Source of the DNA: a candidate division WS6 bacterium GW2011_GWF2_39_15
GTDB taxonomy: Bacteria > Patescibacteriota > Dojkabacteria > SC72
DNA: 64,000 nucleotides
Direction: 5' to 3'
NCBI GenBank assembly: GCA_000993565.1
Contig: LBWK01000001.1
Span: forward strand, 300,208-364,207
Each line of letters starts with the position of its first letter. The stretch's first letter is position 1. Made by a program: the position numbers and the translations under genes. Of the stretch, positions 6,612 through 63,935 are shown one piece after another. The notes beneath the pieces are model-generated. The model was not told the DNA's origin, searched no databases, and saw nothing but the letters and a program-made list of their open reading frames with translations.

Positions 6612-7184
6612 TTGGAAACTGAAAATCCTCAATATATACTACTCATGAAAGCCGGCCCATACTGCGGATACACTCTCCCTGAGATTATTGAGATAAAGCA
6701 GAAAGAAGAGAAGAAGACCGGAAAATTCTTCTGGGGATATAGCGGAGTTTTTTGTCATCCAAAAACACTGCAAAACTTTGTTCTTCAATCTATATCAAAT
6801 AGCAAAAAGGTATATATCCTGCTCACCGAAACGAAGTCCTCATTTGAAACTCCAAAGGTTGAACAGTTCACAAAGTATTCTACAGATACTAACCACTGGT
6901 TAAATCTACCTGAAGAAATCCTCCTGGTTGGCAATAAATCCAGACCTCACTTTGCAATAACGGGAAACAAATTACATGCTGTAGAGATGAATCTGGATAT
7001 AAGCCAATACTGTCTGTTGAATGGTTTACTAATAAACAAGGACCGATATCTAAACAACTACTTTAAATACAGAGTAGACAAAGCCTGCGGTTACTATTCC
7101 CCAAGAGAAGACTATACAGAAAAGATAATAAAAGTGAACTATCTAGCAGAACTGGTTTCTCCATACTCAATCTATATAAAGTGA
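6612..7184 (+). CDS. hypothetical protein
   Basis: Long ORF in coding-like context; no recognisable motifs. Confidence 0.35.
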   Translation: METENPQYILLMKAGPYCGYTLPEIIEIKQKEEKKTGKFFWGYSGVFCHPKTLQNFVLQSISNSKKVYILLTETKSSFETPKVEQFTKYSTDTNHWLNLPEEILLVGNKSRPHFAITGNKLHAVEMNLDISQYCLLNGLLINKDRYLNNYFKYRVDKACGYYSPREDYTEKIIKVNYLAELVSPYSIYIK

Positions 7185-7289
7185 GGTGAATCAACATTTG
7201 GGTGGTTTTTGATCTTTACCCACAACTCCTCTACTCTCACAAGATATTGCCCTACTTCTAATTGATCCCTTTTATCCTTCGGAGTATAA

Positions 7290-7740: not shown

Positions 7741-9729
<1,989 letters not shown>

Positions 9730-9766
9730 CCTTTATATTCTTTCCTTACAGGCTTATAATCCCAGT

Positions 9767-10753
9767 ATGCTTCTAACAATACCCGCTACATATCCTGAAC
9801 AGACTGTAATCAAGTACTATCAAACTGTTCAATCTCCTCTGTTTGTAGGTCTGGACTCAGCCGTTCTACTTAAATCCACTGAGAAATACCTCGACACTGT
9901 TAAGCCCTCAGGAATAATACTGCTGGGTAACAATATTGAGAATTATGAACAGACTAAAAAATTGATCTCAGATATAAAAAAATATGCACAGAAAAAAGGT
10001 ATTAGTATAGAGATCTCCATCGATGAAGAAGGAGGGCTTGTTTCAAGATTAAAAAATTTAAACGGATATCCCAGAGACTTTACGGGAATCAGCGATTACA
10101 ATTCGAAAACCGCCTCCAAACAGGCTGACTATATGAAGCAGATTGGAATAAACCTAAACTTAGCACCCGTTGCTGACATCGCGTACAAAAACTCTGTGAT
10201 GACAACCAGAAGTGCAGGAGAGACCTCGGTTAAAGTATCTGAGGTTATTTCATCATATATAGATATTCTTCACGCAAATAATATTGAGAGCTCTGTAAAG
10301 CACTTTCCCGGTCTCGGAAGAACCACCTCTGACACGCATTTCTCTCAAACTACGGTGGGAATAAACTACAGGCAGTGGTTAGTTACAGACTCAATCCCTT
10401 TTAAGACTGCCGTCGATAACGGGACAGATTATGTAATGACAGGACATGTTATTTACAACCAAATAGACTCACTTCCTGCGAGTATATCTCCAAAATGGAC
10501 CGAGATATTAAGAAACGAGCTTCACTTTGAAGGCAGGATTATAACCGACGATTTAAAGATGGTAGGGGTAGGGGAGTATGGAAACACCTATCTATGTAAT
10601 AACAAAAAGAAAGTTTCAGGGAAAGATAAGTATGCTGTCATAATAAAGAAGGCTTTAGATGCAGGAACCAACAACCCTTTGCTCATTCTTAACCAGCAGG
10701 ATACTATCAATGCTACAAAAGATTGGATACTCATTGAAAAAGAGTGTATATAA
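9767..10753 (+). CDS. glycoside hydrolase family 3 N-terminal domain protein (beta-N-acetylhexosaminidase NagZ-like)
   Basis: KHFPGLGRTTSDTHF matches the KHFPGHG motif, with an upstream DEEGG.V.R motif. Confidence 0.7.
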   Translation: MLLTIPATYPEQTVIKYYQTVQSPLFVGLDSAVLLKSTEKYLDTVKPSGIILLGNNIENYEQTKKLISDIKKYAQKKGISIEISIDEEGGLVSRLKNLNGYPRDFTGISDYNSKTASKQADYMKQIGINLNLAPVADIAYKNSVMTTRSAGETSVKVSEVISSYIDILHANNIESSVKHFPGLGRTTSDTHFSQTTVGINYRQWLVTDSIPFKTAVDNGTDYVMTGHVIYNQIDSLPASISPKWTEILRNELHFEGRIITDDLKMVGVGEYGNTYLCNNKKKVSGKDKYAVIIKKALDAGTNNPLLILNQQDTINATKDWILIEKECI

Positions 10754-10789: not shown

Positions 10790-11617
10790 ATGATTAATCT
10801 TGAAAACGCTGTAAAATTCCCCTTTGAGGATAAAGACTGGCTCAAAACAGTCGGGGTATATTTTTTGATCAGTTTAGGACTTGCGATAATAACCTTTGTA
10901 CTTCAGACAACTTTTCAACTTCCTGCAGATATCTTTAATACAATAGCAAAAGAAACTGAGACTGAGTCCTTTAAATATCTTGCAACCAGTACAAACGCCA
11001 TTTCGGCTTTTTTCAATATGATTGTATCTTTGGTTACATTCCCGGTAACCTTGTACCTATCAGGTTATCTCTTTGATGTGGTAGGACATATCATGTATGG
11101 AAAGAAGCCCGAAATCACTCCGCATGGAAATATATGGCAGAGGGTAAAGTTTGGGATTGTGAAGGTGGTAATAGGATTTGTGCTTGGTATGACTTCTCTT
11201 CTGCTCCTTGGATTTCCCATACTTACAGGAGCAGCAGCTGCAATATCGATGGAAAGCATGATTGTAGTGAGCATCCTTTTATGGATTGCGACAGGAGTTC
11301 TTTTCCTTTTATGGCTTTTTACCTGCGTCATAATAGTAAAGTTTGCAATGTACAGCATGGAGTATTTGTATCTATCCGAAGGATTCAAAAATGTCTTTGT
11401 TCTTTCAAAAGTTTCGGCCCTCATTTCCAACAACTGGAAAAAGTATCTTCTCCTTCTTGGGCTTGAGATATTAGGGGCGATAGCAATCTCCCTCTCCTTT
11501 GTCACATGCTGTATGGCCTTCTTTGTATACCCGGCAGTAGCAACCGTTGTAGCATTTGCTTTGGCATACTGTTACGGCACTGTATACAAGGAGATATATA
11601 CCTCTTCTAGGGTTTAA
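10790..11617 (+). CDS. polytopic membrane protein, unknown function
   Basis: Multiple hydrophobic helices. Confidence 0.4.
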   Translation: MINLENAVKFPFEDKDWLKTVGVYFLISLGLAIITFVLQTTFQLPADIFNTIAKETETESFKYLATSTNAISAFFNMIVSLVTFPVTLYLSGYLFDVVGHIMYGKKPEITPHGNIWQRVKFGIVKVVIGFVLGMTSLLLLGFPILTGAAAAISMESMIVVSILLWIATGVLFLLWLFTCVIIVKFAMYSMEYLYLSEGFKNVFVLSKVSALISNNWKKYLLLLGLEILGAIAISLSFVTCCMAFFVYPAVATVVAFALAYCYGTVYKEIYTSSRV

Positions 11618-11680
11618 CAAAACCGCCTTTTTAGGGTATCATGGTTAGACAGGCAACGTATAATTTAGATACTACAAGTT

Positions 11681-14461
11681 ATGAACGACGAGAAGGATAA
11701 GATTGTGAAATTGGCAACAGAACAGGATCCAGAAACAAATACACCAGAAACTCCACCAGTGGTTGAAACAGAATCAGAAGACGGAGGAGATGATGAAGGA
11801 CTTTCATTTAATACAGAGTTCAAACCAGGTGAGATAGCAGACAGTTCCATTTCAGATGAGATGAAGACCCGCTACATCGACTACTCAATGTCCGTAATTG
11901 TTTCAAGAGCACTTCCTGAGGTAAAAGATGGTTTGAAACCGTCGCAGAGAAGAATTCTCGTTGCAATGAACGACATGAACCTGATTCCTTCCGCGCACTA
12001 CAGAAAATCAGCAAAAATAGCGGGTGATACTTCAGGTAACTACCACCCGCATGGAGAGGTCGTTATCTATCCTACAATGGTTAAAATGGCTCAGGATTTT
12101 TCAACCCGATACCCGTTAGTAGACGGGCAGGGAAATTTTGGTTCAGTAGACGGGGACCCTGCGGCTGCAATGAGATACACGGAAGCCAAGATGTCAAAAA
12201 TTACAGTGGAACTCCTTCGAGACCTTGAGAAGGGAACCGTCCCTTTTATTCCTAACTATGACGGTACAAGACTGGAACCCACTGTTCTTCCTGCTGCAAT
12301 TCCACAGCTTCTGGCAAACGGAAGCGATGGTATAGCCGTTGGTATGGCAACAAAAATTCCTCCTCACAACCTCACAGAACTAATTACCGCACTGCGCGAA
12401 ATGATCAAGAGAGGAAACAAGTGGGAAGGAAAAGCTATCTATAACGAGCTCAGACTTGATAGAGAAAAGGGAGAGAGAATCCCTATGACCCTCGACCCCA
12501 GACCAGTTGACTACCTTGGCAACTATATAAATAAATATAGTCTGGAGTATGAAAAGCAGAGAGAAGCAATTGCTCTTCGCATTAAAACCGACGAGCGTCT
12601 GTACCCTGAATTCAAATCTGAAATAACGCCTGAAGAACTCATCAACATAATTCCCGGACCTGACTTTCCCACAGGAGGAACTATTTATGACAGGAATGAG
12701 ATTCTGAATGCATATTCAACCGGTAGAGGAAGGATTCTTCAAAGGGCGAAAGCATCTATTGAAGAGGGAAAGAAAGGCAGATACGAGATAATTGTAACTG
12801 AGATACCTTTCCAGGTTAATAAAGCATACCTGACCGAAAAGATTGCTGATTTGGTGAAAGAGAAGAAGGTTGAAGGTATTGCAGATATCCGTGACGAGTC
12901 TAACAGAGAGGGGATGAGAGTTGTAATAATCCTGAAAAAGGATGTCCAGCCGAAAACAGTCCTAAACAAGCTCTACAAGTTTACAGAGATGCAAAAGGTC
13001 TTCAATGCCAATATGATTGCCCTTGTTGAGCAGGAGCCAAAGACACTTCCTCTAAAACAGATGCTGGAGCTATTTTTAAGCTTCAGAATCTCAGTTGTAA
13101 TTAGAAGATTTGAGTTTGATTTAGCAGAGGCAAGGTATAGAGGACATATACTTGAAGGCCTGCTTAAAGCACTAGATATTCTTGATGACATTATTGCCAC
13201 AATACGAGGTTCAAAAACCCAGGAAGAGGCCAAAACCAACCTTATTTCCAAATTTGACTTTACAGAGGTACAGGCACAGGCCATTCTTGAGATGCAGCTC
13301 AGAAAACTCGCTGCTCTGGAGAGAGAGAAACTGCAGGATGAATATAAAGAATTAGGTGAAAAGATTAAAGAGTATACCTTAACCCTTGCAGACCCAATTA
13401 AGATCCTTGGAGTGATCGACGCAGAATTATCCGAGATCGTTGAGAAACACGGTGACGCAAGAAGATCTAAAGTCATTAAAGGCAAGATTGATGAAATTTC
13501 TGAGGAGGATATGGTCGCGGCTGAAAATACACTAGTAACCTTGAGCCACTCGGGATACATAAAGAGGATTCCTCCTGATACATACAGGACTCAGAATAGA
13601 GGAGGAAAGGGTATTACAGGTGCCACGACAAAGGAAGATGACTGGATCTCGCACGCCATTTTGTGCAATACACATGATGACTTGATGTTCTTCAGCAACA
13701 GGGGAAGAGTATTCAGAATAAGGGCATTTGAGATCCCAGAGTATGGAAGAACAGCTAAAGGCCTTCCGATTGTGAACCTCATCTCTTTGGAACAGGGTGA
13801 ATTGATCACAAGCGTTCTTAATATCAGCAGGAACAGTGACGAATCAGGAGTTACATATAAGTTCCTTTTCATGGCTACGAAAAAAGGGACAGTCAAAAAG
13901 ACTGACATTAAAGACTTCGAAAAGATTAGAGCAACCGGATTAATAGCAGCAAAGCTCGAAGGAAGCGACGAACTGCTCAAAGTGATTCCAACCTCAGGGG
14001 AAAGTGAGATCATTATGGTAACAAGAGAAGGTAAGTCAATCAGGTTTAAAGAGGAGGATGTAAGGCCGACAGGAAGGGCTACGATGGGAGTACGCGGTAT
14101 TAAGTTTGCCAAAGACAATGATGAAGTGATATCCATGGATGTTATGGTATCAGAAGAGGGTAATTTCTTTACCCTTTCTGAAAAAGGCTTTGGAAAGATG
14201 AGTAAATTAAGTGATTACACTCTGCAGGGCAGAGGAGGATCAGGTATCTTTACCTTTAGGGTAACCGATAAGACAGGAAAGTTGGTAGTTGCAAAAATTG
14301 TTGATAATAAAGACGAAAGTGAAATAGTCGTGATATCAGAAAACGGCGTAATTATAAGAACGGAGATGAAAAACCTTCCTATTCTTCAGCGCCAAACCTC
14401 GGGAGTAAAAATTATGAATGTCGCAACAGAGGATAAAGTTTCTGCAATTGCCGTAATTTAG
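11681..14461 (+). CDS. gyrA: DNA gyrase subunit A (with acidic N-terminal extension)
   Basis: [22 protein letters not shown] (catalytic Tyr region) and [23 protein letters not shown] are present, with C-terminal beta-pinwheel repeats; 926 aa. Confidence 0.95.
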
Positions 14462-14482
14462 TTTAATTGTTAACGATTTCAA

Positions 14483-15100
14483 ATGAGACAGTTACTAATT
14501 AATAAGCTGATTACGGATAAGAAGGTATTAAGTCTCCTGACGCTTAACGACTTCGGAACCTGGTCAAGTGCGAGTCTCTCAGGAATTATATTTCCACTCT
14601 TCTCTATATCACAAATTAAAGGTGCTGATCTAACAGATGTTGGACTATCATCCCTAGTATTCTTAGGTGTAAGTGCTGCTCTCAATCTTCCTTTAGGAAA
14701 GGCTATGGATAGGCTTAAAGGGTACGTGGATGAAACCTATATTCTCGTAGCCTCCTCGGTGCTTAGAGGCATTGCCCTAATTCTTCTCGCCTATTCAACT
14801 TCACTCGCAGCATTATACTTCTATCAAATAATACTGGGAATCGCTCGGTCAATGAACTATGTTTCCTGGAGGGTTCTATTTAGCAAGTACCTGGATCCCA
14901 AGCATGTAGGGGAGCAGTGGAGCGTTTATGACTCGGTTATCGCCATTGGCCTTGGTATAGCAACGTTTATAGGCGGCTACATGGGTGATAATTTCCCGTA
15001 TTCATATGTAATTCTTGTTGCAGGTCTAGTCTCTATTGTTGGAGGCGTATTTCCTCTATTTATTGTAAAGGACGTGAAAGAGATTGCTGAAGAGAAATAA
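14483..15100 (+). CDS. membrane protein, unknown function
   Basis: Six predicted hydrophobic segments. Confidence 0.35.
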   Translation: MRQLLINKLITDKKVLSLLTLNDFGTWSSASLSGIIFPLFSISQIKGADLTDVGLSSLVFLGVSAALNLPLGKAMDRLKGYVDETYILVASSVLRGIALILLAYSTSLAALYFYQIILGIARSMNYVSWRVLFSKYLDPKHVGEQWSVYDSVIAIGLGIATFIGGYMGDNFPYSYVILVAGLVSIVGGVFPLFIVKDVKEIAEEK

Positions 15101-15128
15101 ACGGGTAATGAAATGATATACTCAAGTT

Positions 15129-16028
15129 ATGGAAATAACGTTAAACAGAGAGAGTAAAGAGAGAAGGATCGGCATTCTTTTTATTCGTCTTTTTATACCC
15201 CTCCTGTTACTTTTTACTGTCCTTTCTGTAGGGCTATGGAAATATTCATACATCTTTGGACGTTCCAATGAAACAGAGAAGGATGTACCCGTATTAAAAG
15301 TAGGGGAGAGAAATGAAACGAGCCTACTCAAACCTCTTCCAATTCCACAACCTTCTATCAAGAAAATTGTCGTGCCTGTAGCGCCTAAGAGTGCCGGAAC
15401 AAGTACCGCAGGCTGGTGGAAATATCCAAACGTGATTAAGGAAACAACTAGGTCAGGTGACGATTTATTAGTGTTAGTGAATAAAGAGTATAGATTACCT
15501 TCTACATACGTTCCTGCAGGTTTGGTTTATGCTAATACTAGCGGGATCAGGGTAACTACAAAAGCAAGCTACATGTTAAGGAGTATTGTAATTGAAGATT
15601 TAAGGGAGCTTAATAATGATGCAAAGAAGGCAGGGTTGAACTTGAGTGTGATATCGGGTTATCGGTCGTATGCAGCTCAATCCGGCACCTATAACTACTG
15701 GGTTAATTACAACGGCGGCAACTATGATGTAGTGGACCAGATATCCGCCAGGCCGGGACACAGCCAGCATCAGCTTGGTACAGCCATGGATTTTTCAAGT
15801 AGTGAGATAGGGGACAGGCTGGGAAGTGAGTTTACAGATACGAAGGCAGGTAAGTGGTTAGCCGCAAATGCATGGAAGTATGGATTTGTGATTTCATATC
15901 CAAAGGGGTGGGAAGCGGTAACAGGGTATACTTATGAGAGCTGGCATTACAGATACATAGGGAGAGAGAATGCCAAAGAGATGGTAGAGAGTGGTATCAT
16001 ATTGGAAGATTATTTAAAAAATAAGTAA
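15129..16028 (+). CDS. peptidase M15 (VanY-like D-alanyl-D-alanine carboxypeptidase family), membrane-anchored
   Basis: SGYRSYAAQ...HSQHQLGTAMDF...ESWHYRYIG are M15B motifs, with an N-terminal TM helix. Confidence 0.7.
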   Translation: MEITLNRESKERRIGILFIRLFIPLLLLFTVLSVGLWKYSYIFGRSNETEKDVPVLKVGERNETSLLKPLPIPQPSIKKIVVPVAPKSAGTSTAGWWKYPNVIKETTRSGDDLLVLVNKEYRLPSTYVPAGLVYANTSGIRVTTKASYMLRSIVIEDLRELNNDAKKAGLNLSVISGYRSYAAQSGTYNYWVNYNGGNYDVVDQISARPGHSQHQLGTAMDFSSSEIGDRLGSEFTDTKAGKWLAANAWKYGFVISYPKGWEAVTGYTYESWHYRYIGRENAKEMVESGIILEDYLKNK

Positions 16029-16031
16029 GAA

Positions 16032-16676
16032 GTGAATAAGAAAAGAGTTTTAAACAAGATCCTTAATTGGTATATACTCGTGGGAGTAGTTATGCTCGTA
16101 GTAGCAACCTTATTTATTCTCTCCCCGATTTATCCTTATATCTGGTTCCAAATAAATAATGATGCTTTAGCCAAAGAGCAAGCAAATGTAGTCACTCTCA
16201 TCAACAATATAGATGAAGAGGAAAGAAGTAATACAGCTCCGGAAACTCCAGATCTACCGTCATTTGATTCATCACTTACATCTACAAACACCCTTTTAAT
16301 TCCCTCCATTGGAGTTGTAGGAGCAATAAATGAAAATTCTATTCCGGAAAACGGACTTTCTAAAGGTGTATGGAGAGTTTCTGAATGGGGAGATCCAATT
16401 AATAACACAAACCCGATTATTCTTGCTTCACATAGATTTGGTTATTTAGCCTGGAGTAACAGTTATAGAAAGAAGAATTCATTTGAGAACCTTCCTAAAA
16501 CTAAAGTAGGGGATACCATAGAGATAATATGGGAACAGAGAAGATTTAGATATAAAATATATAAAGTGGAAGAGAATACTAAGATTGCTGATTATAAAGC
16601 CAACCTCATTCTTTACACTTGTAAAACACTAAACTCAGAGATTAGAGTTTTTAGATATGCTATGAGAGTAGAATAA
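16032..16676 (+). CDS. sortase family transpeptidase
   Basis: N-terminal TM helix, catalytic His in ILASHR and Cys in LILYTCK (TLxTC-like). Confidence 0.7.
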   Translation: MNKKRVLNKILNWYILVGVVMLVVATLFILSPIYPYIWFQINNDALAKEQANVVTLINNIDEEERSNTAPETPDLPSFDSSLTSTNTLLIPSIGVVGAINENSIPENGLSKGVWRVSEWGDPINNTNPIILASHRFGYLAWSNSYRKKNSFENLPKTKVGDTIEIIWEQRRFRYKIYKVEENTKIADYKANLILYTCKTLNSEIRVFRYAMRVE

Positions 16677-16677
16677 A

Positions 16678-17895
16678 CTAAGCAGCAAATGATAAAGGTT
16701 GGGAACTCTTCTCGACTTTCGATCCCTTAGGTATAGAACTTCCGCCAGCAATTATTCCGGCAAGGTCAAACAAACCCCATGGGAGAGGTTGATAAAGAGA
16801 TATAAAATTAGCGGTGAAGTTAGCATTTATTATTTCCTGATTTTGACTTAATTCACCAATCCGAAATCCTTTTCTTCTAATGTAATCTGAGAAGACTGCC
16901 TGAACATATGTAGAGTGAGACTCATTCGCCAACAATGAATGATATTGTTTTCCTAACGCAGTATTAATATCTCTGGACATAATATAACCACCTGCATTTA
17001 CCAAAATAGAGGGAAGTAAATACCATCCATTTACTCCGAAAGCCATAAGAATACTTAATATATCTATCACCTGAAATCTTTTCTGAGTGATTATGAACTC
17101 TCTGGACCTATTCGAGACTTCCGGATATTTATATGCAAACCAACTATGTGCTGCTTCATGTGCGAGAATCTCTGCTGGGGTTAATATCTCACGATATACT
17201 TTATCTGAAAAGAAGGAATTCATAATATGAATCCTATTCCCATCGATCCCCATTCCAGCTCTCAATAATGATGGCCTAAGAATATATTCATACCATTTAA
17301 ATCTCGCAAATACGATTTCCGCATTCGGGATAAGAGAATTAATATCAAGAGTATTCCCATTTGGAGACGTTTGATAAAAACCGACAGTACTTAAATACTT
17401 ATCCGGCGACGACGTTCCTGATTTTAGATCAAATACAATGTCTACATTGTTGTTGCCAGGAATATCATAATTTATCCTTAATAATCCATTAGATACAGCA
17501 CCTTTGAAATCTCCACCCTTCATTGACCTAAACATCGTTTTCAAATTGTCTTCAGTGCTTGTACTTAAGCCATCTCCCGCAATTATATGTGGATCCAATG
17601 TTCCTACATCCTGTAGGGGAGTTTCCCAGAGAAACATGGTCTCATTACCATATTTTTCTCTGAAGAGTTCACCAGGAGCTGTTTTTTCAATTCTTACACC
17701 TTTAAAATATTCAATTACCTCATCAGCTTCCGGAAGATGATCCTTAACAAAATCAGCATCTGTTCCCGGAGGGGTTTGCCAGTTTTCCCTGACTTGTTTT
17801 AATCCAGCAGAGTATGCGTAAGTATTATTCATATCGTAATTATAAACTATTGCATCCAAATTAACTATAGGGTATAATTCTCCCAGATATTTCAT
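16678..17895 (-). CDS. putative zinc metallopeptidase (HEAAH motif)
   Basis: LAHEAAHSWF is an HExxH motif; otherwise unassigned. Confidence 0.4.
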   Translation of the reverse strand: MKYLGELYPIVNLDAIVYNYDMNNTYAYSAGLKQVRENWQTPPGTDADFVKDHLPEADEVIEYFKGVRIEKTAPGELFREKYGNETMFLWETPLQDVGTLDPHIIAGDGLSTSTEDNLKTMFRSMKGGDFKGAVSNGLLRINYDIPGNNNVDIVFDLKSGTSSPDKYLSTVGFYQTSPNGNTLDINSLIPNAEIVFARFKWYEYILRPSLLRAGMGIDGNRIHIMNSFFSDKVYREILTPAEILAHEAAHSWFAYKYPEVSNRSREFIITQKRFQVIDILSILMAFGVNGWYLLPSILVNAGGYIMSRDINTALGKQYHSLLANESHSTYVQAVFSDYIRRKGFRIGELSQNQEIINANFTANFISLYQPLPWGLFDLAGIIAGGSSIPKGSKVEKSSQPLSFAA

Positions 17896-17907
17896 ATATC
17901 ATTAATT

Positions 17908-18159
17908 ATGAGAAATACTAAATTACAATCTATATTTGCAGTTGCCATATTAGCAATGGTTTTCTTTTTTGCTATAAACGGTAATACATTTGCAAGTGGA
18001 TATGGTCCTTACGGGCCTTATGGTCCATACGGTCCTCATAATCCCGTTGATGCAAGTATTGTAAATACAGATGTATTTTCTATAGTTGGTCTTTCTTTGT
18101 ATGGAGCAGGTAGTGCATTAATTGCAAATGCTTCAAAGCTCAAGAAACTTATTAAGTAA
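17908..18159 (+). CDS. small secreted GYGPY-repeat protein with C-terminal hydrophobic segment + basic tail (cell-wall sorting-signal-like)
   Basis: Signal peptide, (GPY)4 repeats, then FSIVGLSLYGAGSALIANA followed by SKLKKLIK. Confidence 0.4.
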   Translation: MRNTKLQSIFAVAILAMVFFFAINGNTFASGYGPYGPYGPYGPHNPVDASIVNTDVFSIVGLSLYGAGSALIANASKLKKLIK

Positions 18160-18486: not shown

Positions 18487-19160
18487 CCGTCGTGCACTAT
18501 CAGGTGCGTTTTTAGAAATAGAGACGCACCTGCGGTTAATCCTTATATTAATGATATAGACTACATTAACCTATAGTATTTACATTTAAGACAGTATGTA
18601 CTATAATGTAACTAGCAATTTAACAATTAAATAGATTAACTTAAATCTGGTGCGCTTAAATCCTAAAAGGATTTCCAGATATAAATTAGTGATTAAAGAA
18701 ATAAGCGCCACATGTAAAACTGTGGCGCTTTCTTTAATCATTGTAAGTTGGTCAGAAAAATACATATAGAATTACATTTAAGCGAATGTAGTACTAAATG
18801 TTTCTGACCAGCTTAGAATGAAAATATAGAGGATACATAGATTAATGTTAAAAGAATATTTTTACATTAAATATGTCTCTTTTAGAAATAAAAGGACAAG
18901 TTCTTTTAAAAGCCTGATATATGATAATAGTAGTATATTTATATACTCAAATTACATATTTGATGGCAACACTCGTTGAAAAAGAATCGGACGGAAAGAT
19001 GGAAGGTATAGGATGTATAGAGTTACATCTCTTCATCGGATAAAGAGTTTTATTATTAGAATTTTTTATCTGATGAAGAGCACGCAGTGCTCTAGAAAAT
19101 CCTTTGCCACGAGGGGGAAACACCCTTCATACCATCAGGTGGCCAACAAACAACTACCAA
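18487..19160. other. ~670-bp AT-rich non-coding region dense in hairpins and a ~30-nt direct repeat
   Basis: Bulged hairpin at 18487-18545 (ttaaccg..caggtgcgt/acgcacctgcggttaa). A ~19-bp-stem hairpin at 18691-18741 (gattaaagaaataagcgccaca / tgtggcgctttctttaatc). An inverted repeat at 18747-18812 (gttggtcagaaa / tttctgaccagc). Direct repeats at 18578-18610 and 18770-18800 (ttacatttaag...gta.tactaaatg). Confidence 0.5.
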
Positions 19161-19170
19161 GGAGGTAGTG

Positions 19171-19899
19171 ATGAAACCCATGACCGTTATTTCAAGTCTG
19201 GTTCTTTTTGCTGTTCTGCTGACTGCATGCAATATCGGCGCGGTTCAATCCGTTTCTGGCGACGTCTCCGCTTGCGGTGGCGTTGTTTCCATGAACGCTG
19301 ATGGAACCTTTACGGCAGATGTCGGCACGATCGTGTACACGATTGGTGGGATCACCCTTCACTATGAAGATGGAGATCCTCTCAAGCTTAACGCTGGGCA
19401 GTTTGCCACAGTCACTGAGCTTGTGACAATCAATCCCACGGCTGGAACCATCACTGGTAAAGTGATTCCAGGCGTCGGTACACCTCCTGCCTGCGTTGTA
19501 GCAGCTGCAGCTATCGTTCCTGCAACCATGACGCCTCAACCGGTTTCGACCGAGTTGGACTTCGTGCTTGCACACGGGGCGCACTTTGCGGATTACATCA
19601 CACCTGGCCGCGACTACCGCGAGCTGTCCGTGATGGACGTCTACAATGCGCTGAAAGCGTATGGATACGAGGACACCGATTTTCTGGTCATTGCCCACTC
19701 AGATGAAGTGCGCGAATGGCAGGAATCTCGGCTTCTCGCGAAATCCTTCGATGCCGGAAAGGCCCTCATTGCCGTTGGCGAGGTGAAGAACCTTAAATCT
19801 GACAAAGCTTTCATGCTGGTCAGTGCCAATGTGTATGATGGTCCGAATGACATCAATGGGAATCCGCTTGAGGTCTTCGACCCCACGCCCAACGAGTGA
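19171..19899 (+). CDS. lipoprotein of unknown function, GC-rich (horizontally acquired)
   Basis: Strong SD aaggaggt 8 nt upstream of the ATG. MKPMTVISSLVLFAVLLTAC has an LTAC lipobox. By eye GC is >50% against ~37% in the surroundings. Confidence 0.6.
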   Translation: MKPMTVISSLVLFAVLLTACNIGAVQSVSGDVSACGGVVSMNADGTFTADVGTIVYTIGGITLHYEDGDPLKLNAGQFATVTELVTINPTAGTITGKVIPGVGTPPACVVAAAAIVPATMTPQPVSTELDFVLAHGAHFADYITPGRDYRELSVMDVYNALKAYGYEDTDFLVIAHSDEVREWQESRLLAKSFDAGKALIAVGEVKNLKSDKAFMLVSANVYDGPNDINGNPLEVFDPTPNE

Positions 19900-19968
19900 T
19901 CCATATCACCGCTCCCTAACTTATCTCTGAAAGGAGGTTAAAAAATAAGTTTAGGGAGCGGTGGATCA
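19897..19968. terminator. long inverted repeat between convergent genes (possible bidirectional terminator or island boundary)
   Basis: tgatcca(tat)caccgctccctaa ...32-nt loop... ttagggagcggtggatca. Confidence 0.4.
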
Positions 19969-19979
19969 TTCAAAAGAAT

Positions 19980-22832
19980 CTATCTTTTGAAAACCAATCC
20001 CCAAATCCAAAAAGCAAGATACACTAAATATATCCATAACGTAGCAAACAAACCGATCATATAGATAATTTGTGGTATATACACGATTATCAGTGAATCA
20101 TAACTCTCTATATTCTTTACATACCATCCGTTTGCATAGTCGTAAGTTGTAAGTTCCTGGCTACTTAGATCTGTCACAGTTTTATTATTTCTGATACCAA
20201 TAAGTCTCCATTGGGCGTTTTTATTCTGATTAAGCGACACTACATAATTACCGACAGCATCTTTACTCCAACTTACCTGTGAACCCCAAACATAATTTTT
20301 TATCGTAAGATCTAAATTCTTCCCTCTATCAAGATTGATTCCATCTACAACCTGACCAGAGTATGATAGGGGAAGAGTAACGAATCTCACTTCTTTAATA
20401 TCAATTGAAAAAATCTTTTCTTTCTCATCATTCAAATACAGGTAAAGAGACATATCATTTTTATCCTTATACCTGTCGATATTCTTTAGATATACATAGT
20501 CAGTTACATAACCGAAAGATTCTTCACGTCTCGTAATAATCCCGTCACTCTGAGAATCTTCCCCCAATACTCCTGAGAAATAGCAGAAATTATCTTTAAG
20601 CCCAAAGATACAATACCGAATACTCTGGGTAGAATTATTCGAATAGGTTACCTTCAATATTCCTCCCTTACCTATATTACTATTCATCACAGGTTCAAAC
20701 ATACATGTCCTTTGTCCAGCAGATGTAATTCTGATACCTGAGCTCTTTTTTAGCTTTGTTATTTGAATTTCCGATGGTTCTGTATCCTCAGGATCACATG
20801 TATATCGGGAACCGTTATTCCAAACTCCGTTATTAAAGTTGTAATTTGAGATCAGATCATAATGCCCAGACTTTAAATCCAGGCTTTGGGATTCATCTTC
20901 ATTATTGATATAGAGGGAGTCTCCGACTATCGAGAACCCATTGTTCTTCGGCTCTTTGCCACATATAGATGAGTTAGGGAAATATTTGTCAACCGGGAGA
21001 CCAACTCTACACTCATTACTCCCATAGATAATTTTTGAACTAACCTGGATACTATCTTTAGAATGATCATTACATGTATTGCGATATAGAGATAATTGCC
21101 CATATTCGCTCACAAGGTTCCAGCAATCGAAATTGCTAATCAATGCCTTAAATTCATTTAACCGAACTTTAGAGCCGTCACCAGGAAGGTCTATGAAATC
21201 ATTTCGAAGAAGAATCCAATTTGTTTGCGTTCTAAATAAAAAATCATTGAGGGTGGTTGCATTTGGTTCCTGTAAGCTATTCAAAATACTGACAGTTTTG
21301 TTTCCCTGTATCTGATTGTAATACCCGTCTATGTAGTCGACATCTGCAAGTCTATGCATAATATCAGGGCCGGCATAACCCCAATCATAGTATGTATACC
21401 CATAGATATGTTTTGATAAAGGTAGAGGAAGAACTTTTTGCCCTTTGGCATTTTCATTTAAATACTCTGCCATTTCCAGATAGCCATAAGTAATTGGGCT
21501 TATCCAAGCTTCATTAATCGCCCTCCCAGGTATAACATATAGCAAAATCCCAAAGATAAATAAGAAGAAAACTATCTGTACTCTGGTAAATGTATAAACA
21601 AACTTCTCTGAAGTGAACTTGAAAAGCTGCTTGATCTCCAATTTCTGGTTAAACAACAATGCCAGCAAAAGAGACCCAATAAAGAAATACGGCATAGACC
21701 AATATGTCCAGCTGTCCCGGAATAAATCTGAGTATAATGGGATCTTTGATAAAGTTTCTGCAAATATACTGCCAAACGGAGAACCGAATCCATTTGCTAA
21801 AATACCAAAGATTATAAAAATAAATAACAACACCCAACGCTTTTTAAGATTAATCAATCCTGAGATGATCATACAGATGATAGGTACTAACCCTAGTGTC
21901 AGCATGGCTGACTTGGATATATTCCCTAGAATCGGGAAATTATGATCGCCTGGATTAATGGAACTTAAACCATGAGTCCAGGCATATGAGCCAAACCCAG
22001 CCATCGTTTCGACAAGCTTATAATCCTTTGAAAATAGTGTCGCATCATTTCTATAGTATTCCAGTAGACTATTCTGTGCGATATCCGAGTAGTTCAGACG
22101 AGAACCAAAGTAGGAGAGAAAGACCACAGTGTTCAAGAAAAGCGCAACGATAACTATTAAACATACTTCTCTAAGCCGAATTCTGATCGAGATCAGATCC
22201 ATTTTCCCTAATACTAGTACAATAGCTGGGACAAGAATCCAATAAATAAGATATATATTTGCAGTTCGCGATATCGACATCATAACCAAAGCAAATATCC
22301 CAGCTCCAAGATAGGGATTAATCGTTTTATCAAAAGTACGAGCTAGAATATAAACCAGAAGGGGTAAGGAAGCATATGCATATAGGAGATGGGGTTGTGG
22401 AAATTGAAAGCGGAGAAACACATAAACATTGAGCATAAAAAATAAACTCCCAACCCACATTGCAAGTTTGCCAAATTTCAAATAACGAAGAAGCATGAAC
22501 ATAAAGATTCCTGCAAAAGCTCTTAAAACCGTGAAGTATAGGAAGTTGGTTAAAGTTATTGACCTAACAAGCATCTGAATAATTAGCTGAGGGAGAAGAA
22601 GAAATAGTTTACTTACTGCGAAGAACTCCGGAACTCCCAGCGCTTCTCCTGACCATACATAAAGACTTCTTTTAATTTCCAAACCTATATTTATCGGATA
22701 GTCGATATCGCCACCATTTATAAGTTGACCCCACTGTCCTTTGTATGCAATTAAATGAATCGCTAGGCTTATACCTAAAAAAACGGCTAAAGGAGCGAAT
22801 TTCTTTAGCAGATTCAAGATCTTTCTTTTCAT
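19980..22832 (-). CDS. large polytopic membrane protein, GT-C-like (AftD/YfhO/DUF3367-like) glycosyltransferase candidate with a ~450-aa extracytoplasmic C-terminal domain
   Basis: About 12 or more TM helices in the N-terminal 520 aa. N-terminus paralogous to the 24829..26469 product. The start is more likely the internal MKRKILNLL (22832) than the ORF-track start at 23000. Confidence 0.5.
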   Translation of the reverse strand: MKRKILNLLKKFAPLAVFLGISLAIHLIAYKGQWGQLINGGDIDYPINIGLEIKRSLYVWSGEALGVPEFFAVSKLFLLLPQLIIQMLVRSITLTNFLYFTVLRAFAGIFMFMLLRYLKFGKLAMWVGSLFFMLNVYVFLRFQFPQPHLLYAYASLPLLVYILARTFDKTINPYLGAGIFALVMMSISRTANIYLIYWILVPAIVLVLGKMDLISIRIRLREVCLIVIVALFLNTVVFLSYFGSRLNYSDIAQNSLLEYYRNDATLFSKDYKLVETMAGFGSYAWTHGLSSINPGDHNFPILGNISKSAMLTLGLVPIICMIISGLINLKKRWVLLFIFIIFGILANGFGSPFGSIFAETLSKIPLYSDLFRDSWTYWSMPYFFIGSLLLALLFNQKLEIKQLFKFTSEKFVYTFTRVQIVFFLFIFGILLYVIPGRAINEAWISPITYGYLEMAEYLNENAKGQKVLPLPLSKHIYGYTYYDWGYAGPDIMHRLADVDYIDGYYNQIQGNKTVSILNSLQEPNATTLNDFLFRTQTNWILLRNDFIDLPGDGSKVRLNEFKALISNFDCWNLVSEYGQLSLYRNTCNDHSKDSIQVSSKIIYGSNECRVGLPVDKYFPNSSICGKEPKNNGFSIVGDSLYINNEDESQSLDLKSGHYDLISNYNFNNGVWNNGSRYTCDPEDTEPSEIQITKLKKSSGIRITSAGQRTCMFEPVMNSNIGKGGILKVTYSNNSTQSIRYCIFGLKDNFCYFSGVLGEDSQSDGIITRREESFGYVTDYVYLKNIDRYKDKNDMSLYLYLNDEKEKIFSIDIKEVRFVTLPLSYSGQVVDGINLDRGKNLDLTIKNYVWGSQVSWSKDAVGNYVVSLNQNKNAQWRLIGIRNNKTVTDLSSQELTTYDYANGWYVKNIESYDSLIIVYIPQIIYMIGLFATLWIYLVYLAFWIWGLVFKR

Positions 22833-22867: not shown

Positions 22868-24037
22868 ATGAAAATACTTCTAGCTGTCCCAGAATATCCT
22901 CCACATCATATTGGAGGTGGTGGTGAAGTTTACAAACAGCTTGCAACAAACTATCAGCGATTAGGGCATGAGGTAACTGTTTTATATGGATATTATCCAA
23001 ATAGGGGATTAAATTCCAAAATTAAGAGCTACAAGAAAGATAATATAATCTTCTATGAGGTCCCGGAGCTACCATACCCTAAGTCGAAACCATTTCTCAG
23101 AACCGCAATGCCAGCTACCATGAAAGCAAAAAAAGAGCTTCAGGACATTATTAGTTCTGACATTTTTGATGTCGCACACCTTCACGGATATGGTTGGCCT
23201 TTAATAAACACAATTGCAGGGCTTTGTATGAAATTTAATATTCCTTATATTTACACATTACATGGATACCCTGAGAGCCAGAATTCTTCCCCAATTTTAA
23301 GACTTATATGGAATAACTTCATATTACCAACCCAAAATAGATCCCTAAGTCAAGCCCATTCACTAACGGCAATCTCCGACTATGTGGCAAAGGATCCAAG
23401 GAACACTCAACTTAGCAAGACTCATACAATATTCAACGGAATCAATTACAGTTCATTTAGAGAGATCGCAAATGAGGTAGATATAAAGACGGAAAACAAC
23501 ATTTCAGATGATGACTTATTCATATATTCAATAGGTAGGTTGGCAGAAATGAAAGGCTTCCAGAATATCGTTAAGTTGATACCTCAGATAAATAAGCAGG
23601 GAATGAAAGTAAAATACTTAATCGCCGGTGATGATGATGGATATATGAAAGAATTGGAAAAGCTAGTTTCAAACTTAAGGTTAGAGGATCAAGTTAAGCT
23701 TGTAGGTTTTCATGGTGATGATACTAAAAAAATGTTCATAAAACAGTGTAATATATACGCAGTTCCATCGTTATGGGAACCATTTGGTTTAACCGTTCTT
23801 GAAGGAATGGTATTTGAGAAACTGATACTAACAACCGAGGCCGGAGGGATTAAGGAAGTTTTGGAGGGATATAGCAACAAGATTAATATGGATGATAAAG
23901 ATCTGATAAATAAAATCATCAGTAGAAAGCAAAATAGAAGCGAAATGGATTGGAATAGATTTAATTGGGAAACAATATCCAAGAATTATCTTAGTCTTTT
24001 AGAAGAAGCCGCTATTCATACAAAGAGATTAGCCTGA
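22868..24037 (+). CDS. glycosyltransferase family 4 (GT-B, GT1/GT4)
   Basis: N-terminal HIGGGGEVY and C-terminal VPSLWEPFGLTVLEGM (an EX7E-type motif). Confidence 0.75.
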   Translation: MKILLAVPEYPPHHIGGGGEVYKQLATNYQRLGHEVTVLYGYYPNRGLNSKIKSYKKDNIIFYEVPELPYPKSKPFLRTAMPATMKAKKELQDIISSDIFDVAHLHGYGWPLINTIAGLCMKFNIPYIYTLHGYPESQNSSPILRLIWNNFILPTQNRSLSQAHSLTAISDYVAKDPRNTQLSKTHTIFNGINYSSFREIANEVDIKTENNISDDDLFIYSIGRLAEMKGFQNIVKLIPQINKQGMKVKYLIAGDDDGYMKELEKLVSNLRLEDQVKLVGFHGDDTKKMFIKQCNIYAVPSLWEPFGLTVLEGMVFEKLILTTEAGGIKEVLEGYSNKINMDDKDLINKIISRKQNRSEMDWNRFNWETISKNYLSLLEEAAIHTKRLA

Positions 24038-29907: not shown

Positions 29908-32900
29908 ATGGGACTTAACGCCGGTGGTATGCAAGAAATACATCCTGATATCCAGTCAGATAGAGAGTTAATAACCTCTGGTAAAGTTCCTCAGGGAACT
30001 GCTGAAGCTAATGACAAATTAAATACTCCAGTAGTAGATATTACAAAGACAACTGGTTATTATGGGAATGATTTAACAACCGATCCTCTCCCGCTTACTG
30101 CTGAAGCGACAGCAAAGATACTTAGAAGAGGTCCTGCACAAAATGAAGATAATGGAGAAACAGGCTTGAAAGCCGGCGAGGAAAGACCTAAAACTCAATC
30201 TGCTATTCCTGTAGCCAACGGATCAGCTTATGTCGAATCAGTTAGTCCTTCAACCCCTGCACAGCAGACACCAGACACCGAAGGACTTGATCAACTTAAT
30301 ACCCCCTTATATACGCTTACTGGAGGAGGAGAGACCACTTCGACTAATGTAACTACGCCAAATGCAACAGAAGGTAAAGCAGGTAAAAACGGTACTGATA
30401 CATCAGATGACTTAGTAGCAAAGCTAAGATCAATGTTGTCCCAGGCTGACAAAGATAAGCCTAAAGAACACACTATAGAAACACCTGTAGCCCAGGATCT
30501 CAATCAGGCAGTTACAGCTTTGGCTGCAGAAGTTGCTAAGGAACCTGAAAATAATTCAAAGAAGGAAGAGTTGAACGGCTTAAAGGAATTAAGTCAATCT
30601 GTAACGAACCTCTCACAACAGATAAACCAGGTGAAAATAGAAATCACAAATCAAGTTAATACTCAGGTTGCCCAAATTACTGCAAAGATGGAAGAATCTA
30701 AAGATAAGCTGGCAGGAACGGTAAACCACTATTATATGCAAGGGGGCTCAGTATTTCACGGGACAGTAGGAGCAGGTACACATATAGAAGTTACAAATAC
30801 GGCAAGTAATTTTAATACAGGAGCAGCAGGAATAAGCGTTAGAAATACAGCAGACCACGGAAGTACAATAAACAATGGCAATATTGTAGATGCAGGTGTT
30901 AATCTGGGTATACTAGATTTGAATGCAATGATGGAAGAAGCTGAAAATTTGGACAGGCTTGCAGACGAACCAGAAGCGCCAACTTCTCTAAGTGAGGCGG
31001 CAAGGGACACAGCCGATAAGGCGAGAGAGCTTACAGAGGATATAAAGACAAGAAAAACTGATCGAGTAACAGATCCGGCAGTTACACCTGATTCAAGTTC
31101 AACAACTCATCCACCCGTAATAAAACCTCAACCAAATGTAACACCGAACGATAATCCTCCTACACCTCCACAACCGGCAGTAGCAGTAACAGATGACAGT
31201 AGTGAGCATAAAGACACCGGAGTAACCCCAGAAGAGCAACCTACTTCCGATCCTAAGAAAGCAGCAGAGAATCTAGTAGGGCCATTGACTCCTGAAGAGT
31301 CACAGGAATTTGATAATGCGAATGAAAAGAAAGGTTTTCTCTTCAGCATAAAGAGAATGTTCAGCGGTGAAAACTGGAAGAGATGGGTACCAACAGTGAT
31401 AGGGTCGATCGCAGGTTCATTCGGGGTAAAACTGTTTGCAGGAGCAGCTCTATCAATGGGTCCAATTGGAACCGCATTACTCGGAGGTGCAATGGCTGGT
31501 TTTGCCATATATTCAGGATATAGAGCTATCAAGAACTTAAGTGAGGCAGCCAAGGCGGAAGGTAAATCTGTATGGCAGGTAATGGGCAACTTGGATTTTG
31601 TAAAAGGAGCCTTACTTGGAGGATTAATTTCTGGGGTAGGTAAAGCTTCAGCGAAGTTTATCCCTGGATTCGGTTCGCTTATGGCACTTGGACTTGAAGG
31701 AGGAACTTCGTGGCTATTTGAAAATCACCTTAACAAGAAACAGCAGGAATTAGTTAACAAATACATGGATACATACCAGGCACGCAGGTATGCAAATCTT
31801 AAGGATAAAGGATATGTCATTAGAGGTGCTGAAGGAGCACCTGCTGTAGGAATGGAATCCATACTTAAAGATATGACAAGTGCACCTTCAGAATCAGAAA
31901 AGAAGGTAGCAAAGAGAGCTGCACTTGCTTCCCTTATACATCTCTACAGCATAACTAAGGATGATGCCCATAAATTTGTTGAGTATACGATAAAGGAGAA
32001 CGGTGTCGATAAGGTGATTAAGGTTGATATTACACAAATTGCGATTGATGAAGCAGAAGGAAGTACAGAGAAATACAGAATGCTTCAACTTAAAGATACT
32101 GACAAGATTAATGTCGAGAAATTTATAGATACATTAGATACAGCCAAACTTACATCAGCGATTCAAGATGCATGGAACAAAACCGATGCAACTAAGAGGG
32201 CTGATATGGCTAAGGATCTTGTAAACCTCTTCGTTGGCTTGGAAGGCACAGAAGTAGAGAAGATTATGTCGGAAGAGAGAAAGAGCTATCTCTCATGGAT
32301 CAACTTCACAACTGGGTTACACTTTGGTATGGCGGCAGTAAATGTTGGATCCTCTCTTGCAGGAGCTTACGGAGCATTCAGAGACAATTTTGGTGTCAAT
32401 CATGATGCACAGGGAGTAAACACCTCAGATTCTCAACAAGCAACAGAAGATTATAGAAGTGCCCATCCAGAAGCCCCGCAGGCAGAAGTAGAGAGGGTAG
32501 TAAATGCTGAAGGCCACATAATTGATAAGGTAGATGTAGACGGAGGCGGCGTAGACTACTACGTCGACCAAACTACAAACCAATATGTTGTACTTTCTGG
32601 GACCGGTGCTGAAAGCGTATTTGAAATACAACACCCGGATCTTGGACAGGTAACCGCAACTGAAGTAACTACCCACGGAGATACAGGCATTGTTGCCACT
32701 TTGAGTGATAATGCAGGAAAAGTTGTTGGTGTAACATATGCCGACTCTACTGGACACATTGGAGTTTTGGATATGAACGGCGTAGGTCAGCATCTATTTG
32801 CAGGTGGAGGAGAGAGCCCAATACACGGAGTAACTCTCACTGATATACAGCCAAATGGTGATGCAACATTAGTTTTAGACAATGTAAACCATCAAGTAAA

Positions 32901-50235: not shown

Positions 50236-50264
50236 AAGGAGTGTAGCTAAAAATAATATACCTA

Positions 50265-63521: not shown

Positions 63522-63935
63522 TTAAGGCTTTAATTTTTTTAAGGCCTCAACAATACCTATATTGTGAAGTTTACCTGCACCAAGAAATGGTAGGAGAATT
63601 TCTGAGACCCTTTTCTGAGATCCAGGGTCACGCATATCTAGTGGCAAAGTTCTTGACGGTTGAACACCTGGTTTCTCTATGAACTCATAAATATTAGAAT
63701 AATCAGCAATAACACCACCTTTCGCATCTATTGAAAGTACAACCCCCCCACTTCCCTCGTTTGCCATCGTTATAAATACAACGCTTCCCGAAGAAACTCT
63801 GGGATTCTCAAATGGTAAAAGGTTCTTTTCAACAATTCCAGTATCAAATCCTATTTCCTCTAATACAGGAAAAAGCTCTTCATCAGAAGCAGATTCGGAA
63901 AATAAACTTTCGTTCGGGAAATTTCGTGATGTCAT
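63522..63935 (-). CDS. hypothetical protein
   Basis: ORF only. Confidence 0.3.
   Translation of the reverse strand: MTSRNFPNESLFSESASDEELFPVLEEIGFDTGIVEKNLLPFENPRVSSGSVVFITMANEGSGGVVLSIDAKGGVIADYSNIYEFIEKPGVQPSRTLPLDMRDPGSQKRVSEILLPFLGAGKLHNIGIVEALKKLKP

Follow-up and report, generated by a model that had tools for sequence, protein, structure and literature searches.

Why should one gene in an AT-rich bacterial genome be markedly richer in GC than everything around it? The question is raised by an open reading frame (ORF) in candidate division WS6 bacterium GW2011_GWF2_39_15, a member of the Dojkabacteria, on contig LBWK01000001.1 (positions 300,208 to 364,207; this stretch of 64,000 nucleotides is the window, and positions below count from its first letter). 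The ORF, at 19171-19899 on the + strand, encodes a lipoprotein of 242 amino acids that begins MKPMTVISSLVLFAVLLTAC. An earlier note on this DNA presumed a recent horizontal acquisition, inserted between envelope genes and possibly donated by a high-GC, Actinobacteria-like organism. Comparison with related loci led us to a different reading, which we hold at somewhat better than even odds (about 55%): the gene is a hypervariable, modular and lineage-specific cassette for a putative surface lipoprotein, seated in a fixed slot and GC-rich across its whole allele pool, with a recombination-linked GC bias maintaining that composition. The ORF would thus be the local allele of a slot that lies beside an envelope-glycosylation locus, with glycosyltransferase genes of the GT-C and GT4 types, in Dojkabacteria-like bacteria belonging to the candidate phyla radiation (CPR). 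Related loci are referred to below by our L numbers and individual proteins by our P numbers.

A lipoprotein gene of outlying composition

The GC content of the ORF is 53.2% (0.532), compared with 38.8% (0.388) for the window, which places it at z = 5.4 among all 729-nt windows outside the gene (mean 0.387, sd 0.027, maximum 0.46). GC at third codon positions (GC3) is 0.56, against 0.351 +/- 0.041 (maximum 0.41) in the 55 other ORFs, a z of about 5, and the codon-usage score (z -6.7) makes the gene the strongest outlier among the 56 ORFs. The codons AGA, ATA, TTA and CTA are absent, and arginine is encoded by CGC and CGG only. Ala, Val, Thr and Gly together make up 40% of the residues, and Pro is enriched too. 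Amino-acid composition cannot be the sole cause of the anomaly, because it accounts for only 5.1 of the 13.8 points of GC excess; the other 8.8 points come from synonymous codon choice.

The predicted product has the sequence features of a bacterial lipoprotein, as a substrate of Lgt and LspA would. Its signal peptide (19171-19230) runs from a basic n-region through a hydrophobic core to an LTAC lipobox (MKPMTVISSLVLFAVLLTA followed by Cys), in which Cys20 is the predicted lipidated residue. Next come a variable, beta-rich N-domain (19231-19485), which is 29-35% identical between relatives, an Ala/Pro/Thr-rich linker whose length and sequence vary (19486-19551), and a conserved alpha/beta C-domain (FVLAHG...RDYREL...VIAHSDEVREWQE...GKALI...DKAFM), which with the stop codon spans 19552-19899. 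The C-domain is the GC-richest part of the window gene (GC3 0.65). Translation would start from a strong Shine-Dalgarno sequence, AAGGAGGT, at 19159-19166. The earlier note had described the GC richness, the unusual codon usage, the ribosome-binding site, the lipobox and the Ala/Val/Thr/Gly-rich composition, and each of these descriptions stands up to quantitative analysis.

In codon-aligned homologues, differences are rarest at position 2, more frequent at position 1 and most frequent at position 3; in the C-domain the respective values are 0.11-0.28, 0.16-0.37 and 0.47-0.69. This order indicates that the gene is under real protein-coding constraint. All slot genes described below satisfy the same lipoprotein signal and lipobox pattern, [LVI][ASTVI][GAS]C, as the window protein does, and so does the one occupant, in L005, that is not homologous to the others. 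When the lipobox scan was run over ~150 kb (window 1-64000 plus L001, L002, L005, L009, L011 and L013), the slot gene was the sole candidate lipoprotein ORF. These genomes seem to have few lipoproteins, perhaps hardly any besides the slot gene.

The slot is occupied and GC-rich in all relatives

If the gene had been inserted between envelope genes, some relatives should have an empty site; none was found. The slot is filled in L001, L002, L015, L005, L009, L011 and L013, the loci whose contigs reach the neighbouring genes. Its convergent neighbour in the window is a polytopic membrane protein of 950 amino acids (19980-22832, - strand), which we assign to the GT-C type (AftD-like) by homology only: neither Pfam nor NCBIfam gave a match to the window protein, and a weak match to PF11847 was obtained on homologues only. 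One homologue, P0006, is 50% identical to it and is named by NCBI as an arabinofuranosyltransferase-family protein; its source is the complete 1.04-Mb genome of a Candidatus Dojkabacteria bacterium (CP129478.1). A GT4 glycosyltransferase gene (22868-24037, + strand) is the next member of the conserved neighbourhood. In eight relatives from independent assemblies, all Dojkabacteria-like CPR bacteria, a lipoprotein gene lies beside a ~950-aa GT-C-like protein and a GT4. The lipoprotein and GT-C genes are convergent in L001, L002, L015 and L009, and are rearranged yet still adjacent in L011/L012 and L013/L014. On the left, the window is syntenic with L001 through genes for a 405-aa and an 83-aa protein. 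The earlier note had itself said that orthologs at the same position in relatives would speak against its reading, and such orthologs are what these loci contain.

The family is small and confined. A word-indexed search of 5.8 billion protein clusters returned four members, and when 1.84 billion representative proteins were searched exhaustively with a profile, ten were found. Nine of these ten were examined; all nine lie on low-GC contigs and six show the same neighbourhood. No high-GC organism carrying the family was present among the matches from the 1.84 billion representatives, which leaves the proposed Actinobacteria-like donor without a candidate. The lipoprotein profile found no match in Genome Taxonomy Database (GTDB) genome contigs or Joint Genome Institute (JGI) metagenome contigs, the GT-C profile none in GTDB genome contigs, and a DNA pattern of the leader upstream of the gene none in JGI metagenome contigs. 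A literature search for Dojkabacteria lipoproteins returned nothing.

We then asked whether the GC excess belongs to the window gene or to the slot. All 11 slot or family genes are GC-rich, at 48-62% against backgrounds of 30-47%, with GC3 of 0.47-0.78; three of the eleven are on contigs too short to show a neighbour. The window gene has a GC content of 0.53 against a background of 0.39. The corresponding figures are 0.53 and 0.30 for L001, 0.49 and 0.40 for L002, 0.51 and 0.42 for L015, 0.48 and 0.33 for L003, 0.55 and 0.30 for L009, 0.59 and 0.41 for L011, 0.62 and 0.47 for L013, 0.51 and 0.39 for L016, and 0.56 and 0.45 for L005; the L010 gene is at 0.58, on a contig too short for a background value. 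The GC content of the slot genes does not follow that of the host background.

The lipoprotein homologues are at or near saturation at their synonymous sites: identical degenerate residues use different codons in 45-79% of cases, compared with 55-73% in the flanking GT-C genes. Had the AT-biased background acted unopposed, an inherited excess would have been erased over such divergence; something therefore maintains it. The GC excess is a property of the whole allele pool and not the fading trace of a recent import.

The shift has a particular shape. At four-fold degenerate sites C is enriched 1.6-4.6-fold, and NNC is favoured over NNT in 7 of 7 loci, with the NNC share of NNY codons at 0.54-0.82 in slot genes versus 0.25-0.49 in the background. 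A is depleted in six of the seven loci, while enrichment of G, and of NNG over NNA, is inconsistent. The pooled four-fold composition is C 0.35, G 0.23, T 0.25 and A 0.17, and no such skew is seen in the background. The two domains also differ: GC3 is 0.51-0.65 in the conserved C-domain and lower, 0.43-0.53, in the variable N-domain.

Several simple explanations of this shift were rejected. Translational optimisation is excluded because the genes for ribosomal proteins S6 and S18 and for the single-stranded DNA-binding protein SSB favour the opposite codon set: they prefer AGA, ACA, ATT, TCT and CCT, and the lipoprotein uses GC-ending codons that those genes avoid. Slow translation through rare codons fits poorly, as the bias peaks in L013 (GC3 0.78), a locus whose background already has a GC3 of 0.48 and in which codons ending in G or C are no rarity. 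An overlapping antisense gene could have accounted for the C excess, since in the frame of the antisense ORF at 19192-19698 sense position 3 is antisense position 1; homologues interrupt that frame with 0 to 11 stops, whose positions differ, which makes the long antisense ORF a by-product of avoiding TTA, CTA and TCA. Nor is the shift a general trait of secreted proteins, for the dockerin- and CLIPPER-domain proteins of L011, which have signal peptides, show ordinary GC3. An assembly artefact is rejected because the pattern repeats in more than 10 independent assemblies, including the complete genome CP129478.1.

Alleles are replaced with sharp breakpoints

The most direct view of how the slot varies comes from L002 and L015, two near-identical strains. 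Their GT-C genes are 99.6% identical at the DNA level (synonymous divergence, dS, 0.012), their GT4 genes 98.1%, the structured element 3' of the lipoprotein gene 100% and the leader 93%. The lipoprotein coding sequences between these flanks have only 62.6% DNA identity and 64.6% protein identity, with a nonsynonymous divergence (dN) of 0.32, a dS of about 3.3 and a dN/dS of 0.10. Identity drops after codon 4 and returns 15 nt ahead of the stop codon. The low dN/dS together with saturated dS points to old alleles that have been under purifying selection and were moved between backgrounds.

Replacement can go as far as a non-homologous gene. L005 and L002 have GT-C proteins that are 76% identical and flanking DNA that is 72-74% identical, and their lipoproteins are non-homologous; homology breaks ~8 nt before the start codon and restarts within the 3' element. 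The L005 lipoprotein has its own lipobox and TDGTD/STD repeats, is also GC-rich, and had no detectable relatives in a homologue search. Domains are exchanged as well. The N-domains of L001 and L009 are 56% identical, against 30-31% for the flanking proteins, and the C-domains of the window and L001 are 83% identical, against 47-49% for the flanks and 33% for the N-domains. Elsewhere in the family the N-domain is fused to unrelated C-termini (P0011, P0012, P0013 and P0015), and P0010 consists of the C-domain alone behind a membrane anchor.

Within a lineage the allele is stable. L005, L006 and L007, three independent samples of one lineage, are identical over a stretch of 536 nt, 411 nt of it coding sequence, which indicates discrete replacement rather than continuous mutation. 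Horizontal exchange thus does occur at the slot, as allele replacement with sharp breakpoints. To that extent the horizontal acquisition proposed earlier was correct in kind, as L002 and L015 demonstrate for relatives; what we found is no foreign insertion, however, but a resident slot fed from a pool within the clade. Such a pattern would be expected if the population recombines and diversifying or balancing selection acts on a surface protein.

Structured elements border the slot on both sides

The 5' leader contains a series of hairpins on the + strand. Hairpin 1 (19029-19080) is a long AU-rich stem of ~20 bp that is kept in L001 and L003; its arms are conserved as CTTCAYYRGAT...ATCTRRTGAAG, with three pairs altered on both sides plus G-U pairs. 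Hairpin 2 (AGAGCAC-GCA-GTGCTCT, 19078-19094) is the small hairpin that the earlier note had placed near ~19080, and its AGAGC/GCTCT stem is conserved in the same two loci. In hairpin 3 (19106-19143), GCCAC...GTGGC encloses an inner stem; the outer stem is kept in L003 and the inner stem differs in sequence. The rise in GC begins in this region, ahead of the start codon. The Shine-Dalgarno sequence itself is partly sequestered in a mini hairpin (CTACC/GGTAG, 19153-19169). By eye, analogous Shine-Dalgarno hairpins of other sequences are present in L003 (TAATCC/GGATTA), L001 (ACCT/AGGT) and L011 (AGATC/GATCT), and because the mini hairpin recurs with differing stems it may control translation. 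L002, L015 and L005 have another long leader hairpin in common, despite the unrelated coding sequence of L005. Hairpin 1 of the window folds at -31.6 kcal/mol on the + strand (z -7.4) versus -20.3 on the - strand; the better fold of the sense strand, with its G-U pairs, favours an RNA structure in the sense transcript.

The 3' element (about 19894-19971, + strand) sits between the convergent lipoprotein and GT-C genes. It consists of an outer stem, GTGATC/GATCA(T), and an inner hairpin, CACCGCTCCCTAA/TTAGGGAGCGGTG, and folds at -38.4 kcal/mol (z -8.1 versus shuffles), in keeping with the inverted repeat previously described downstream of the gene. That repeat had been noted for an aaggaggt motif in its loop: AAGGAGGT does recur there, at 19931-19938, and the loop motif is not conserved in relatives. 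The architecture of the element is common to the window, L001, L002, L003, L005 and L015, in one copy per locus. The outer stem is conserved, with GATCAC in the relatives and GATCAT plus a G-U pair in the window; both in the window and in L001 it overlaps the stop codon. The inner hairpin varies in sequence from locus to locus and keeps its pairing, with seven pairs altered on both sides; the window element lacks one extra hairpin found in relatives. Of the features of an intrinsic terminator the element has the stem only: neither strand shows a T-run after it, and the terminator scan made no call.

Searches of Rfam with the leader and the 3' element gave only generic hairpin matches far under threshold. 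The two are conserved non-coding structures, previously undescribed, that lack an Rfam counterpart. They could be regulatory elements or protect the ends of the mRNA, and may in addition provide recombination with conserved arms of homology. At 63875-63888 the leader motif is matched again (13/14), inside a coding region, and this match was set aside as chance.

The surrounding locus

Upstream of the conserved leader lie ~530 bp of non-coding DNA with 20-33% GC (18487-19020). Within this AT-rich tract are a near-consensus promoter-like site (18579-18607, + strand), a bidirectional terminator-like hairpin (18703-18730) and, at 18738-18821, an inverted repeat whose arms are 24 nt long. The tract could be a small RNA gene or a remnant. 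In L001 a DUF3800 gene takes the equivalent place. The 83-aa protein of the syntenic left flank (17908-18159) is predicted to be secreted and has a GYGPYGPYGPYGP repeat; a homologue was confirmed in L001. In L015 an 83-aa gene stands in the corresponding place, and similar small proteins are encoded near the locus in L013 (SSYGPYGPYETE) and L005 (GYSPYSPYNGHPP). Farther downstream in the window, a 1783-aa ORF (29908-35259) has no Pfam match at E <= 1e-5.

L011 presents a second, opposite compositional break. Its GT4, GT-C-like and 583-aa genes (11166-17152) have 29-32% GC (GC3 0.24-0.28), the rest of the contig has 35-50%, and these AT-rich glycan genes directly adjoin the 59% GC lipoprotein gene. 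Their atypical composition suggests that the glycan locus itself moves between lineages. Of the loci compared, this one alone, together with L012, has a gene of the bAvd / 23S-rRNA-IVP family (6898-7206; 6898-7245 in L012), which is situated 3 kb upstream of the lipoprotein gene. The bAvd family is an accessory protein family of diversity-generating retroelements; farther along, L011 has 1.2 kb without called genes (8757-10000), and the locus contains no reverse transcriptase. In L013, a 73-aa hydrophobic ORF (9156-9377, - strand; GC 0.55, GC3 0.70) lies ~620 nt upstream of the lipoprotein gene, so that the GC-rich tract may extend past the lipoprotein coding sequence there.

What keeps the slot GC-rich

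The scheme we favour would account for both diversity and composition. Old diverged, domain-swapped and even non-homologous alleles would replace one another between strains by homologous recombination, with crossovers in the conserved flanks: the leader with its ribosome-binding site on the 5' side, and the GTGATC...GATCAC multi-hairpin followed by the GT-C gene on the 3' side. The GC-rich, C3-rich and A3-poor composition would be maintained against the AT-biased background, not left behind by an outside donor, and the maintaining force would be biased gene conversion, or selection for GC that is effective only where recombination is frequent. Transcript selection possibly adds the excess of C over G. 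From these patterns we infer surface exposure, the kind of selection acting and the cause of the GC excess; the same applies to a functional link with glycosylation, possibly through an O-glycosylated linker.

In recombining bacterial genes, non-optimal GC-ending codons are more frequent and optimal AU-ending codons less so (Lassalle et al. 2015, PMC4450053). The codon pattern of the lipoprotein matches this signature, which supports a recombination-linked GC bias. The higher GC3 of the conserved C-domain is also consistent with such a bias, because heteroduplex formation between alleles is more feasible there.

Several observations weigh against this scheme. The synonymous shift is strand-asymmetric, with C up and G inconsistent, which a symmetric conversion bias does not predict. 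The GC3 excess, +7 to +41 points, seems far above the difference in the Lassalle study of 2015, which is said to have been modest. Conversion needs a heteroduplex, which is unlikely to form between alleles that are 60% identical or non-homologous, and the crossover flanks are themselves AT-rich. Recent replacement is documented by one strain-level pair, L002 and L015, and the window genome has no close relative among the loci. The flanking glycosylation genes may themselves have been exchanged, and the mosaicism is judged against them and not against a tree of housekeeping genes. Effect size and strand asymmetry together are not well explained by recombination bias or by transcript selection.

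Transcript selection, the strongest competitor although on balance unlikely, would account for the asymmetry. By this account recombination explains the diversity only, and the composition reflects selection for a stable or cheap mRNA with a C-rich, A-poor body and few AU-rich endonuclease sites, its ends guarded by the 5' hairpins and the 3' multi-hairpin and its product a very abundant envelope lipoprotein. At four-fold sites C exceeds G and T exceeds A, a skew without parallel in the background, and transcription-related selection has been reported to favour U and C at synonymous sites (Chen et al. 2016, PMC4844684), a preference that would account for both inequalities. GC climbs ~65-85 nt before the start codon, within the leader, and drops past the 3' element, so the shift tracks the presumed transcript. 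A strong Shine-Dalgarno sequence in nearly all alleles, the much better fold of the leader on the sense strand, and the same composition in the non-homologous L005 occupant agree with it as well. On the other hand, the shift is absent from ribosomal-protein genes of the same genome, and T too is below background in most loci, contrary to a model of cheap U. The known effects of transcript-related selection are, moreover, small in size. We therefore prefer the recombination-linked bias, possibly in combination with transcript selection.

Repeated import from a GC-richer reservoir within the same radiation, such as a mobile element, a phage or a sister lineage, would explain why gene GC stays at about 0.5-0.6 regardless of host background. 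Allele replacement is demonstrated, and the AT-rich glycan genes of L011 suggest that the whole region moves between lineages. Nevertheless, every context examined is chromosomal, syntenic and below the GC of the gene, even where the background is GC-richest, in L013 at 0.47 and L005 at 0.45; the slot has no mobile-element genes next to it in the window, L001, L002, L005, L009 or L015; and no such reservoir was seen in databases of about 15 billion proteins. We regard this origin as improbable.

Still less probable is a GC-biased hypermutation or diversification that is limited to the coding sequence and guided by the 5' leader and the 3' GTGATC-stem element. It draws on the confinement of divergence to codons 5 to about 238 between flanks of 98-100% identity, on a GC-rich tract that roughly matches the divergent one, and on conserved structured elements exactly at both borders. 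A dN/dS of 0.10 with saturated dS nevertheless resembles old alleles under selection, the identical sequence in three independent samples does not suggest ongoing mutation, and point mutation cannot yield non-homologous or domain-swapped occupants. The 64-kb window holds no template repeat or silent copy, and no reverse transcriptase is annotated within +/-10 kb. It is a very long shot that the leader and the 3' multi-hairpin mark the bounds of a new targeted diversification mechanism, which could be an RNA-templated process or error-prone repair, would alter the enclosed coding sequence alone and would leave a GC-rich, C-biased footprint; if true, it would explain both the confined divergence and the GC richness of every occupant.

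Least credible is the origin first proposed, a recent and not yet ameliorated acquisition from a high-GC, actinobacterium-like organism: the outlying GC, GC3 and codon usage, the genome-rare codons CGC, CGG and CTG and the sharp change of composition at both gene ends are what it predicts, but the slot is occupied in all relatives, the leader and 3' element recur in relatives, all alleles are GC-rich at or near synonymous saturation, no homologue was found outside this neighbourhood (1.84 billion representatives) or at all in GTDB genomes and JGI metagenomes, and within +/-10 kb there are no integrase, transposase or flanking direct repeats (the repeats present are short and at chance level), the only tRNA of the window lying at 50264.

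Relation to known variable loci

The nearest analogue is the vlsE/vls system of Borrelia, where the variable region of a surface-lipoprotein gene is likewise much richer in GC than an AT-rich genome. The mean GC of Borrelia vls cassettes is 49.1%, that of the chromosome about 28.6%, and the high GC of the cassettes is conserved across species despite divergence, which was ascribed to a strong selective pressure linked with the mechanism of recombination (PMC11499132). The proteins are unrelated, and the systems differ in other respects. The vls sequences have a GC skew of about +0.52 and G runs, whereas skew in the slot genes is -0.13 to +0.05. Arrays of silent cassettes lie beside the vls expression site, whereas blastn and tblastn detected no second copy in the 64-kb window. 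The vls system works by gene conversion within a genome, while the evidence at the slot is for replacement between strains.

O-antigen rfb loci, capsule cps loci and variable outer-surface loci have conserved flanks between which ancient or non-homologous alleles are swapped by homologous recombination, with atypical composition throughout. The slot resembles rfb and cps loci in its conserved flanks, its diverged or non-homologous alleles and the atypical composition of all of them, and the glycan genes that adjoin it in L011 are atypically AT-rich, as such loci usually are. The slot differs from them in that what varies is one coding sequence of 0.7 kb, whose breakpoints fall in the first and last few codons, in that its anomaly is high GC and not low, and in that structured RNA-like elements stand at both borders. 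The GC3 elevation described for recombining genes (PMC4450053) is similar in that non-optimal GC-ending codons go up and optimal AU-ending ones down, and differs in that the shift at the slot is C-biased and not symmetric in G and C.

An ORF followed by a 75-100-nt imperfect inverted repeat, with a fixed promoter and leader upstream and replaceable content, also recalls an integron cassette. An attC site was rejected because the stem ends in GTGATC/GATCAC and not in RYYYAAC/GTTRRRY, and no integrase is encoded within +/-10 kb; unlike an integron, the slot holds one unit per locus, and allele breakpoints fall at no fixed site of the element. A diversity-generating retroelement was rejected as well, because the gene has no repeat in the window and the annotation of +/-10 kb includes no reverse transcriptase; such an element would vary only adenine-templated positions in a short stretch close to the C-terminus, but L002 and L015 differ all the way from codon 5 to about codon 238, and the C-domain is the most conserved part.

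Implications

Atypical composition is routinely read as a sign of recent foreign origin, a rule that misreads the history of this slot. Here the anomaly stably characterises a resident locus and is held across lineages of 30-47% GC, and it has persisted through saturating synonymous change. The slot is for this reason a clean natural test case for what holds GC up against AT-biased mutation in bacteria. It also points to a previously undescribed, fast-evolving putative surface lipoprotein in Dojkabacteria whose gene is linked to a locus for envelope glycosylation. Dependence on other cells is widely assumed for CPR bacteria, and one may speculate that the slot lipoprotein is a molecule of contact with the host or with phage.

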